From Escherichia coli 042 (GTDB lineage: Bacteria; Pseudomonadota; Gammaproteobacteria; Enterobacterales; Enterobacteriaceae), in NCBI RefSeq assembly GCF_000027125.1, contig NC_017626.1: DNA of 64,000 nt; one strand, given 5' to 3'. The first letter of the stretch is position 1. Each line of letters begins with the position of its first letter. Under the pieces are notes generated by a model, which saw only the letters and a list, made by a program, of their open reading frames with translations, made no database searches and was not told where the DNA came from. Made by a program: the position numbers and the translations under genes. Positions 22,525 through 23,443 of this stretch are shown in pieces.

Positions 22525-23443
22525 ATATTATCACTTACTGGCGGCTCATACTGAGCTGGTTAATGCTGTGCACACACAAACAAGCAATTCCATTTGTAAT
22601 GTGCCTCCCTGGCAGTTTCATCCGGAACCCGGACGAAAGTAAAAATGCATATGAGTTGCACTAAAAAAGTGACTCACATTGTTCCGTTATAATGCCTGAA
22701 GTAGATCACAGAATATATCTTCAGGAATCGCATATCTATTAAGTTACTCACTCTTTTGTATTTATGACATGCGCGTGTTTGTATAAATGTAAATGTGAGT
22801 CCTTGTTCCACTCTCGTGCAGCATCGCTGGTCATACGCGAACACGTACAAACAGCAATGGTGAGGCGGCATCAAGAGCAGGGATCCGTCATTTATGCGAG
22901 CATTTTACCCCAAAAACCTTTTATTTATAAGGGTCATTGCGAATTATCTGATGCAAAGTTATGTTATGTTAGGCAAAGTAATCTTCTATTATTAATAAGC
23001 ACAACAAAACCTTTTTGAATATTAAATAATAATTAATTAGCATCATCCTCATTCATTAATCCCGCTTAACAATAGTTTCACACCTTGCACCCATTACGAC
23101 ACCTCGGAAATCATCACGCTGTTAAACTCTCCGTAATGCGGAAATATCATCATCACGATTCATTAGTGAATTCTTAAACGAGGCATTTTCAAACAATTAT
23201 CTTACAGATAAAAAAACCACACTCACAATTAAGAATCAGAACAATTCACTACATAACATTAATTATTAAGCATATACACCTCATTATTTTGCCATTATTA
23301 AGTTATTAACAGCACAATCAAGCCTTCCCCTCTGGCAAAATCTTATTCTGCAGACCTTCAAAACGCCGTCCTGGGGGAGTACATTGTTCTAAGCTGACTT
23401 CCACGGCAGGGAGTGGCGATAACAGCAAAAAAGGTCAAGATTC

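Follow-up and report, generated by a model that had tools for sequence, protein, structure and literature searches.

The 919-bp interval between lrhA and alaA in Escherichia coli 042 is best read as a divergent control region assembled from known kinds of parts, holding a 371-nt lrhA leader targeted by small RNAs, the promoters of lrhA and alaA, and an AT-rich spacer of about 250 bp that is free of constraint, a reading to which we assign a probability of roughly 0.85. The gap is already accounted for by published work and there is no hidden gene in it. The evidence establishes the coordinates, where lrhA transcription starts, where UhpU pairs, how conservation is distributed, and the lack of conserved open reading frames (ORFs) or Rfam structures; Hfq binding, repression by small RNAs, and binding of Lrp and OmpR are taken from the literature; the factor acting at each conserved block and the alaA start site are what we infer. 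LrhA ranks high in the regulatory hierarchy deciding between motility, fimbriae, biofilm and the stationary-phase response, so how its level is set matters, and it influences CRISPR-Cas expression too. The long gap upstream of lrhA is the place where this level is controlled, and as published work has already noted and in part dissected this, the gap as such adds no new biology. What is added is a coordinate-level map with about 45% of the gap constrained, an age for the long leader and the lrhA promoter as great as that of the Enterobacteriaceae, although leader conservation is limited to the last 100 nt, and three testable details, namely a dual GGA motif, a hairpin in the alaA leader and the spacer without constraint.

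Extent, conservation and lrhA promoter

The window is the whole stretch of 64,000 nucleotides analysed (contig NC_017626.1), in which the lrhA ORF (21586-22524, minus strand) and the alaA ORF (23444-24661, plus strand) leave exactly positions 22525-23443 between them. The gap also measures 919 bp in K-12 MG1655, and RefSeq annotates nothing inside it in 042 or in K-12 MG1655. An earlier note on this DNA had described a very large non-coding and strongly AT-rich interval, and both descriptions hold: the GC content is 0.38 for the gap versus 0.52 for the window, 0.32 (about 0.30-0.34) for the 445-bp core 22896-23340, 0.34 for the spacer and 0.42 for the lrhA leader. The '920 bp-long lrhA-alaA' spacer had already been named in print as a multi-factor promoter region (Shimada 2014). 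Of 5426 complete E. coli genomes, 5425 carry it once, on the chromosome, and it is large throughout the Enterobacteriaceae (764-1140 bp at 80 loci), a syntenic part of the family core and no island.

A conservation profile across the Enterobacteriaceae, which had been suggested as a check, was run on these 80 loci and revealed conserved islands at 22525-22620, 22902-22957, 23018-23085 and 23335-23443, with none in the family alignment outside the promoters, the upstream elements and the proximal leader. Divergence from K-12 gives the same picture, with 1.1%, 1.6% and 0.9% in the functional parts versus 7.3% (18 of 246 bases) in the spacer, which thus lies at or above the 4.2-6.4% found for third codon positions of lrhA, alaA and yfbR. 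The features located in the gap are collected in Table 1.

Table 1. Features of the lrhA-alaA interval, in window coordinates.
Feature	Coordinates	Strand	Details
lrhA 5' untranslated leader, 371 nt	22525-22895	-	from start 22895 to the base preceding the AUG at 22524
UhpU pairing site	22536-22552	-	overlaps ribosome-binding region; CGCCAGU core with UhpU ACUGGUG
Hairpin GCUCA-GUA-UGAGC	22544-22556	-	directly upstream of Shine-Dalgarno AAGUGA 22531-22536
Near-invariant CACAGC block	22565-22570	-	-46 to -41; candidate RprA/McaS docking (seed UGCUGUG), possibly ArcZ
Published RNA 3' end	22574	-	K-12 2406691, Term-seq (Adams 2021, excerpts); 322-nt fragment
Conserved GGAAUUGCUU block	22582-22591	-	holds second GGA
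Upstream GGA within CUGCCAGGGAGG	22604-22615	-	best predicted ArcZ seed match
28-codon ATG ORFs	22834-22748 and 22621-22535	-	candidate ORFs in leader
66-codon TTG ORF	22874-22674	-	candidate ORF in leader
Published RNA 3' end	22816	-	K-12 2406933, Term-seq (Adams 2021, excerpts); 80-nt 5' fragment
84-codon ORF	22764-23018	+	candidate ORF
lrhA core promoter	22902-22930	-	-35 TTATAA 22925-22930, 17-bp spacer, -10 TAAAAT 22902-22907, +1 22895
Promoter-upstream element CAGATAATTCGCAAT	22931-22983	-	about -40 to -62; candidate transcription-factor sites
Two adjacent 20-nt imperfect direct repeats	22944-22983	-	from repeat search; candidate transcription-factor sites
Far-upstream island	23018-23085		-123 to -190 from lrhA start; AATATTAAATAATAATTAATT, then TTCATTAAT-N5-CTTAACA
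AT-rich spacer, no detectable constraint	23089-23334		family identity 0.17-0.5, many gaps
Predicted alaA promoter of Shimada 2014, TTAAGA-17-TATAAC	23229-23257	+	one-mismatch pattern match; -10 is CATAAC here
Conserved alaA control region	23335-23443	+	CAAAATCTT-TCTG block, promoter-like sequence, leader hairpin, Shine-Dalgarno AAGG
Putative alaA promoter	23357-23385	+	TTCAAA 23357-23362, 17 bp, TACATT 23380-23385
alaA leader hairpin ACUUCC-ACGGCA-GGGAGU	23397-23414	+	family conservation

The lrhA 5' untranslated region has been reported as 371 nt long (Melamed 2023, eLife RP87151), which puts the start at 22895 on the minus strand, and the fusion primer SM079 from the same work ends in ATAAATGACGGATCCCTGCT, the minus-strand sequence that begins at precisely this base. 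Upstream of it, the -35 element is conserved as (C)TTATA at 61 of 80 Enterobacteriaceae loci, the -10 element as TA[AG][AG]AT at most of them, and the 17-bp distance between the two at 79 of 80. Family conservation ends abruptly at the start site and returns only within the last ~100 nt of a leader whose estimated length in the family is 334-587 nt (median 398). The primer match and the promoter conserved at 80 loci place the lrhA start far upstream, at a distance giving a leader of hundreds of nucleotides, and transcription would begin at 22895 from a sigma-70-type promoter. The lrhA promoter string published by Shimada 2014 (CTGCCA-16-TATGAT) had no match in the gap when as many as 2 mismatches were allowed. 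Because RegulonDB formerly gave a short lrhA leader, there may be a second, weaker start site.

Hfq, small RNAs and conserved blocks in the lrhA leader

Among the things that the earlier note envisaged for the gap, the promoters of both genes and a long regulated leader stood up to analysis, and the independent small RNA or small protein did not. The leader is a published target of Hfq and of three small RNAs. Hfq binding in vivo is reported from co-immunoprecipitation and northern blots, which gave leader fragments of 150 and 350 nt, and lrhA mRNA is increased in an hfq mutant (Bilusic 2014). UhpU, ArcZ and RprA repress an lrhA-lacZ fusion, and RIL-seq chimeras likewise report Hfq on the leader (Melamed 2023), and RprA pull-down retrieves lrhA mRNA. 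McaS forms many chimeras with the leader without repressing lrhA.

Pairing between UhpU and lrhA was proven genetically by compensatory mutation (Melamed 2023), and the site of this pairing was located here. A short-window duplex scan placed UhpU nucleotides AACUGGUGACUUUUGCC on 22552-22536 at -15.8 kcal/mol, and the change of the compensatory mutant lrhA-M1 (C to G at -16, window position 22540) falls inside this predicted duplex. The same scan paired ArcZ nucleotides GAUUUCCCUGGUGUUG with 22618-22602 at -17.7 kcal/mol; its matches are predictions, the UhpU site being the one that is anchored to a published mutation. When whole molecules of ArcZ, RprA, McaS and UhpU were folded as duplexes with the leader, the energies were no better than those of shuffled small RNAs.

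The Hfq-bound leader would thus serve as a hub of post-transcriptional control, in which UhpU pairs at the ribosome-binding region around -16 and RprA and ArcZ pair within the conserved last ~100 nt. Such pairing would lower LrhA synthesis and lrhA mRNA, leading to derepression of flhDC and to altered control of rpoS and rprA. The designation as a hub is secure only for the last ~100 nt, because the central 270 nt lack conservation at the family level; between the two genomes 042 and K-12 they are constrained, the leader as a whole carrying 4 SNPs (1.1%), compared with 4-6% for the third codon positions in the neighbouring genes.

Within the last ~100 nt, several elements recur in the family. 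A hairpin of varying sequence occupies the position just before the Shine-Dalgarno sequence in nearly all species, and of 50 distinct sequences, 96% had a segment here that folded more stably than dinucleotide shuffles (mean z -1.67); RNAalifold on a MAFFT alignment did not recover the hairpin. The CACAGC block is invariant or nearly so and is complementary to the UGCUGUG of RprA and McaS. For Photorhabdus hexA, a validated ArcZ site sits about 50 nt upstream from the start codon, with C-46 as part of it, and the CACAGC block may, judging by its position alone, be homologous to it. Intramolecular pairing of GGAAUUGCUU with CACAGC, an RprA-mimic idea, was also considered, and both blocks are so nearly invariant that covariation is uninformative.

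Further upstream in this segment lies a pair of GGA motifs, of which the second (site 2) was found in 74 and the first (site 1) in 62 of 79 distinct sequences, both being present in 62, whereas control windows in the central leader gave 1-15. In a 51-sequence subset, 44 sequences had the upstream GGA, and all but two of these 44 (42) showed a spacing of 15-18 nt, with a mode of 17, where 0.25 GGA per 28 nt would be expected. A leader was regarded as CsrA-like when two or more GGA motifs were separated by 10-63 nt and one or more of them was loop-exposed or overlapped the ribosome-binding site. The AAUUGC after the second GGA is predicted to be unpaired in E. coli (P 0.95), neither conserved GGA overlaps the Shine-Dalgarno sequence, and the first GGA is also the predicted ArcZ seed match.

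Two published RNA 3' ends fall inside the leader, one at 22816, 6 nt past a long hairpin, and the other at 22574, 50 nt ahead of the AUG. The excerpted tables of Adams 2021 place the end at 22574 among those that do not depend on Rho, and no U-tract follows either end. The sizes of the Hfq-bound fragments (150 and 350 nt; Bilusic 2014) are compatible with both ends. The idea that the 80-nt 5' fragment is a small RNA in its own right was rejected, since the fragment lies in the least conserved part of the leader, with an identity within Escherichia of 0.66-0.79.

A wider reading joins these observations to the spacer and takes the end of the leader as a docking platform that includes CsrA, the 322-nt fragment as a decoy and the spacer as an insulating or silencing element; taken as a whole we hold it to be rather unlikely. 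The last ~100 nt may be an ancient, family-wide platform for CsrA as well as for Hfq, ArcZ and RprA, and its order may be GGA, a second GGA in GGAAUUGCUU 15-18 nt downstream, CACAGC at -46, the variable hairpin and AAGUGA. The abundant 322-nt fragment, whose end falls exactly in the interval separating the two GGA motifs from CACAGC, might be a decoy that captures CsrA or small RNAs, for example McaS.

Upstream DNA, spacer and alaA control region

The two elements upstream of the lrhA promoter are the candidates for protein binding in the gap. The promoter-proximal element (22931-22983) has an identity of 0.67-0.71 in the family and 0.98-0.99 within Escherichia, and holds candidate transcription-factor sites. 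The far-upstream island has a family identity of 0.57-0.71 versus about 0.3 on each side, with 0.83-0.87 in Citrobacter and Salmonella, and is a candidate Lrp site or a candidate site of LrhA autoregulation. Binding of nucleoid proteins had been proposed for this region, and proteins of the global-regulator type do bind the gap: Lrp is present at lrhA by ChIP-seq, with activation, and OmpR binds the DNA upstream of lrhA (ChIP). LrhA autoregulates, and the Rcs system is reportedly connected with LrhA. The conserved ~190 bp upstream of the lrhA promoter would accordingly be protein-binding DNA, with Lrp, OmpR, LrhA itself and the Rcs system as its inputs. By eye, a single T-N11-A-like sequence, TAATCCCGCTTAA, was seen in the alignment of the far-upstream island, as a candidate.

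The alaA control region reaches an identity of 0.55-0.95 in the family, the maximum of the gap. Its leader hairpin keeps a 6-bp stem and the ACGGCA loop in 65 of 66 distinct sequences, the first pair switching from A-U to G-C (41 versus 12). The alaA promoter and a short leader would fill the last ~110 bp of the gap. alaA is under Lrp control. The promoter predicted by Shimada 2014, for which K-12 carries a T at 23252 within the -10 element, is doubtful as the main alaA promoter because it is located in the unconserved spacer.

Between the upstream sites and the alaA promoter, the remaining ~250 bp are probably AT-rich filler drifting at the neutral rate. Terminator-like sites were absent from the gap on either strand, and promoter-like sites occurred at chance level. 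The distance from alaA to the lrhA -10 element is kept at 415-555 bp in the family while the sequence is not. In Serratia, transposon insertions 825 bp upstream of pigU raise its expression, with no published mechanism (Smith 2023). Such derepression by far-upstream insertions falls outside the main reading; a spacer of conserved length and free sequence that insulates or silences the lrhA promoter may exist, and it would explain the derepression of lrhA/pigU.

A related alternative holds that the AT-rich core is curved or H-NS-silenced and perhaps foreign DNA, its size reflecting a nucleoprotein filament and not discrete sites. The GC content of 0.30-0.34 over 445 bp, the conserved length, the capacity of Lrp, which is bound here, to form extended complexes, and the effect of the far-upstream insertions, as expected from a broken silencing structure, all agree with it. 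However, the phased A/T tracts that the earlier note had described do not exceed chance: AA/TT periodicity did not stand out from shuffles, whether in the whole gap, the core or the leader, the power at 10-11.5 bp being reached by 72% of shuffles of the whole gap and by 25% of those of the core. In addition, in the genomic-SELEX data tabulated by Shimada 2014, H-NS is flagged for other spacers and not for lrhA-alaA, and the region is core, single-copy and syntenic in the family. We consider this alternative improbable; it overlaps the main reading and does not replace it.

The several short inverted repeats that had been noticed do not exceed chance. The one given as an example, CCTGAAG-N17-CTTCAGG, is real and is located at 22695-22725 (instead of 22692-22722), in the leader part that is unconserved in the family. 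No other perfect 7-bp inverted repeat with a loop of 3-25 nt occurs in the region, and dinucleotide shuffles contained 1.75 +/- 1.64 such repeats, with at least one in 74% of them. No tandem repeats were found in the gap, and the other repeats were short and two-copy, as is typical of AT-rich DNA.

Three alternatives that would place a further gene or a sensor in the gap fare worse. An independent, unannotated small RNA controlling lrhA might be encoded in the core 22896-23340, and for this speak the larger number of reads upstream of the transposon 825 bp from Serratia pigU, where small RNAs were speculated upon (Smith 2023), and the report that full complementation of Pantoea lrhA needs about 921 bp. 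Yet besides the absence of a terminator-like site on both strands and of promoters above chance, neither an Rfam match nor a conserved island was detected, the spacer lies at background family identity and diverges at an about neutral rate, and RefSeq for K-12, which includes recent small RNAs such as uhpU, has none in the gap. In two excerpts of the Adams 2021 3'-end lists, which cover the lrhA terminator to 2422635, the only 3' end in the gap is that of the leader at 2406933, the one at 2406691 being given in a separate table of that work. As the gap thus presented no promoter, 3' end and conservation of the kind expected of an intergenic small RNA gene, the proposal is very improbable.

The probability is just as low that the leader encodes a small protein or a regulatory upstream ORF. 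Candidate ORFs do exist, and 22621-22535 has the same sequence in four Escherichia genomes and stops 10 nt short of the lrhA AUG, so that translational coupling is conceivable. However, a stop already interrupts the 66-codon ORF in K-12 itself, frameshifts or missing starts affect the 84-codon ORF and the one starting at 22834 in other Escherichia, and in Citrobacter and Salmonella stops break up 22621-22535. The identity of the latter in Escherichia is conservation at the nucleotide level, at all three codon positions, and of 52 species only 27 have the conserved block inside an ORF in the E. coli frame, with varying starts and ends, the other two frames doing no worse. No candidate kept its start and frame throughout K-12, other Escherichia, Citrobacter and Salmonella, and no frame was preferred in the 52 species, in line with the view of the earlier note that 22674-22874 and 22764-23018 are without coding support.

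The least probable alternative is a leader that senses a metabolite or protein through a conserved fold, like a riboswitch or attenuator, for although the E. coli leader is more stable than shuffles (z -2.7 and -2.9), keeps its pre-Shine-Dalgarno hairpin despite sequence change and contains RNA 3' ends, the z-scores of leaders from 12 species run from -3.3 to +1.6 (E. albertii 0.0), the first 270 nt cannot be aligned across the family, the 3' end at -50 is not Rho-dependent with a U-tract after neither end, RNAalifold gave neither a consensus structure nor covarying pairs for the conserved part (from 22 proximal leaders only a trivial hairpin in the coding start), and the covariance-based search that had been recommended, run with Rfam at an E-value of 10, returned no family match in the gap, only eukaryotic snoRNA and miRNA noise, with nothing above noise inside the leader. 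A weak Rfam match to the greA leader was observed at the lrhA terminator, outside the gap.

Comparison with known regulatory regions

The leader described here is the same object as the lrhA 5' untranslated region of Melamed 2023 (eLife RP87151), Bilusic 2014 and Lalaouna 2018, with the same start site, the same UhpU, ArcZ and RprA, and the same Hfq-bound fragments. It differs from the published one by strain polymorphisms only, namely the 4 SNPs against K-12. New in relation to it are the map of conservation across the family and the resolution of the last 100 nt into blocks.

The rpoS 5' untranslated region resembles the lrhA leader in being several hundred nucleotides long, in preceding the gene of a global regulator, in being bound by Hfq and in sharing RprA and ArcZ. 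The rpoS leader is targeted by DsrA, RprA and ArcZ, which activate through the opening of an inhibitory hairpin and also counteract Rho. In the case of lrhA, in contrast, the small RNAs repress, and the single leader 3' end tested is not Rho-dependent.

The csgD-csgB region, which Shimada 2014 groups explicitly with the lrhA-alaA spacer, likewise combines a long divergent spacer (755 bp), a master regulator of lifestyle, a leader targeted by small RNAs and many transcription-factor sites. For csgD more than 20 factors are flagged, whereas far fewer sites are mapped at lrhA and about 250 bp are unconstrained. The orthologues hexA, pecT, pigU and rovM of other Enterobacterales, from genera outside the 80 Enterobacteriaceae loci, are also divergent from alaA and have a long upstream region, with ArcZ pairing about 50 nt before the start codon and overexpression upon upstream insertions. 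With a LysR-type gene opposite a metabolic gene, and with LrhA autoregulation, the locus is similar to a classical LysR-type divergent pair, and in Serratia alaA rises when PigU is overproduced. Unlike such a pair, which shares an operator within about 100 bp, lrhA and alaA have start codons 919 bp apart and non-overlapping promoters about 460-500 bp apart.

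The lrhA-alaA gap and its conserved islands

The earlier note described a 919-bp, AT-rich interval between lrhA and alaA, and this description is exact (22525-23443): the gap has the same length in K-12 MG1655, and its GC content is 0.38, compared with 0.52 in the window, and 0.32 for the AT-rich core (22896-23340). Within the gap no feature is annotated in the RefSeq record of K-12 MG1655, which includes small RNAs that received their names only recently, uhpU among them. The stretch is chromosomal and occurs in one copy; among 5426 complete E. coli genomes, 5383 carry it at 95-100% identity. 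It is a real feature whose explanation is already known. According to the account that we favor, with a probability of roughly 85%, lrhA would be transcribed from 22895 with a long leader, and Hfq-dependent small RNAs would pair at or close to the ribosome-binding region in the conserved 3' part of this leader (for UhpU the pairing is proven), reducing lrhA translation and mRNA level; upstream DNA would combine the input of Lrp, OmpR, LrhA and the Rcs system, and the alaA promoter would lie at the far end of the gap.

Eighty Enterobacteriaceae loci returned by an LrhA scan were aligned with MAFFT. In every locus long enough to show it, alaA is divergent and located upstream of lrhA, and in all 80 loci the gap measures 764-1140 bp (mostly about 900 to 1015 bp), indicating that a gap of this size is ancient. 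Four conserved islands were detected in the gap. Divergence from K-12 amounts to 1.1% in the lrhA leader, 1.6% in the lrhA promoter and upstream part, 0.9% in the alaA-proximal part, 7.3% in the spacer 23089-23334, and 4.2-6.4% at third codon positions of lrhA, alaA, and yfbR. As the spacer also shows background identity in the family alignment, its sequence is unconstrained; the lrhA -10 and the alaA start codon nevertheless stay 415-555 bp apart, a roughly maintained distance.

Genes and conserved islands in and around the lrhA-alaA gap (window positions)
Feature	Position	Strand	Remark
nuoA	20513-20956	-	
lrhA	21586-22524	-	
Last ~100 nt of lrhA leader	22525-22620	-	conserved island
lrhA promoter TTATAA-17-TAAAAT and upstream conserved CAGATAATTCGCAAT	22902-22957		conserved island
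AT-rich block and TTCATTAAT-N5-CTTAACA block	23018-23085		conserved island; 123-190 bp upstream of lrhA start site
alaA-side island	23335-23443		conserved island
alaA	23444-24661	+	followed by yfbR and yfbS

Less than 80% of the gap is retained in 42 of 5425 genomes. In one locus (L086; E. coli SCPM-O-B-12142, NZ_CP144928.1, 1288-3666) it is reduced to 166 bp adjoining alaA, and an IS1 and an IS5-family element connect this remnant with elaD fragments, indicating that lrhA, and apparently the nuo operon too, was deleted.

The lrhA leader as a target of small RNAs

The 3' part of the fusion primer SM079, ATAAATGACGGATCCCTGCT, equals the minus-strand sequence from 22895, which places the lrhA start site at 22895 and the leader at 22525-22895. 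The promoter spacer is 17 bp in 79 of 80 loci, and family conservation at the promoter ends at the start site. Assuming a conserved start site, leader length in the family has a median of 398 nt (range 334-587 nt), and the first ~270 nt of the leader are at background identity in the alignment. The conserved last part contains, from 5' to 3', a GGA motif inside CUGCCAGGGAGG, then GGAAUUGCUU, CACAGC (-46 to -41 relative to the lrhA AUG), a hairpin of varying sequence, and (U/A)AGUGA. This hairpin between CACAGC and the Shine-Dalgarno, the one local RNA structure that found support, is present in nearly all species with differing stems. For 96% of 50 distinct sequences its segment is more stable than the shuffles, a figure that overstates independence because these sequences are related.

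UhpU represses an lrhA-lacZ fusion via direct pairing, as established with compensatory mutants, ArcZ and RprA repress as well, and McaS forms many RIL-seq chimeras with the lrhA leader yet has no effect (Melamed et al., 2023). Also, lrhA was recovered with MS2-RprA (Lalaouna et al., 2018), and in Photorhabdus the hexA leader is paired by ArcZ ~50 nt before the start codon. Bilusic et al. (2014) detected bands of 150 nt and 350 nt for an 'ig-lrhA-alaA' RNA bound by Hfq, and a ~1.5-kb lrhA transcript that was increased in an hfq mutant. In the lrhA-M1 gBlock, a single wild-type base is changed from C to G within GAGCCGC[C]AGT; this base is at -16, window position 22540. A short-window duplex scan placed the terminator-proximal AACUGGUGACUUUUGCC of UhpU on 22552-22536, covering 22540, and the predicted duplex abuts the Shine-Dalgarno AAGUGA (22531-22536). 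Further sites are predicted for RprA at CACAGC and for ArcZ at CCAGGGAGG. Term-seq tables (Adams et al., 2021) give two 3' ends in the leader: one at K-12 position 2406933 (window 22816), which would delimit an 80-nt fragment ending right after a long hairpin, and one at 2406691 (window 22574), classed as not Rho-dependent, which would delimit a 322-nt fragment ending 50 nt before the AUG.

A pair of GGA motifs (22606-22608 and 22589-22591, minus strand) is present in 62 of 79 distinct sequences versus 1-15 in control windows, with a spacing of mostly 15-18 nt in the 51 sequences for which it was measured, and the first GGA doubles as the ArcZ seed match. Judging from this layout, which is like that of a CsrA dual site, CsrA could bind here. 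A Csr link exists for RovM, the LrhA homologue of Yersinia.

Alternative explanations of the gap

Four other explanations were considered, and none passed every direct test applied to it. The first is an independent small RNA encoded in the gap. Apart from the leader 3' ends, two coordinate-sorted list excerpts from the supplements of Adams et al. (2021) hold no 3' ends from the lrhA terminator up to coordinate 2422635.

With regard to an upstream ORF, the earlier note had seen no coding support for the six-frame ORFs, and this was corroborated: the 66-codon TTG ORF (22874-22674) is broken by a stop codon in K-12, and the 84-codon plus-strand ORF and a 28-codon ORF at 22834 suffer a frameshift or a lost start in other Escherichia. 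Another 28-codon ORF (22621-22535) is identical within Escherichia and interrupted in Citrobacter and Salmonella. No favored reading frame was found across the conserved leader block among 52 species; what is conserved in this block is the nucleotide sequence. In the case of a riboswitch-like fold, the leader of E. coli is more stable than its shuffled versions (z -2.7 to -2.9), but z-scores of 12 species vary between -3.3 and +1.6; RNAalifold found no consensus structure, and the covariance-based search of the gap, proposed earlier for structured RNA, gave no match in Rfam.

As to H-NS binding or curved DNA, the AA/TT periodicity at 10-11.5 bp of the supposedly phased A/T tracts lies inside the shuffle distribution for gap, AT-rich core and leader. 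An inverted repeat, CCTGAAG-N17-CTTCAGG, is present at 22695-22725. No other in the region combines perfect 7-bp arms with a short loop, but it is not above chance (shuffles average 1.75), and repeat searches of the region revealed no tandem and no notable dispersed repeats. As repeat and periodicity are at chance, the main earlier observation holds and its embellishments fall.

Regulator-bound DNA and the alaA promoter

Like csgD-csgB, beside which it was put, the '920 bp-long lrhA-alaA' spacer is long and has many regulator sites (Shimada et al., 2014). Lrp binds and activates lrhA, the OmpR ChIP signal is elevated at lrhA, and LrhA is autoregulated. Insertions in the homologous gap of Serratia, between alaA and pigU, cause pigU overexpression, and the authors of that study remarked that small RNAs possibly lie within this gap; no mechanism for derepression by far-upstream insertions has been published. 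At 22944-22983, immediately upstream of the lrhA -35, two direct repeats of 20 nt adjoin each other (TTATCTGATGCAAAGTTATG and TTATGTTAGGCAAAGTAATC). They are imperfect (75% alike) and may represent a pair of factor sites spaced by two turns of the helix, or a coincidence in AT-rich DNA.

Genomic SELEX (Shimada) predicted an alaA promoter, TTAAGA-17-TATAAC, which corresponds to 23229-23257 (+) in unconserved, polymorphic sequence, and its -10 reads CATAAC here because T at 23252 is the K-12 base. Given this lack of conservation, the strongly conserved promoter-like TTCAAA-17-TACATT (23357-23385), 130 bp downstream, is more likely the main promoter. Directly downstream of it, a leader hairpin (23397-23414, +) with a 6-bp stem and an invariant ACGGCA loop is present in 65 of 66 distinct Enterobacteriaceae sequences; its outermost pair switches from A-U to G-C (41 versus 12, plus 9 G-U), making one compensatory pair, and it had no match in Rfam.

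With 629 bp, the nuoA-lrhA gap (20957-21585) is large too; it is AT-rich, with a GC content of 0.35-0.38 in the part 21000-21400, and a hairpin flanked by an A-run and a T-run at ~21505-21550 resembles a two-way terminator after lrhA. Amino-acid identity in the family (loci L002-L081) is 74-95% for LrhA, well below the 90-99% for AlaA. Locus L002 (NZ_JAATUR010000019.1), titled Escherichia coli, has 83% identity to the window over the gap and 95% in LrhA; it is more distant than typical E. coli and may represent a cryptic Escherichia clade. Locus L062 (CACSKA010000019.1), titled Chryseobacterium sp. 18061, is a typical Enterobacteriaceae lrhA-alaA locus almost identical to L064 from Citrobacter sp. 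18056, and its label probably reflects contamination or a mix-up.
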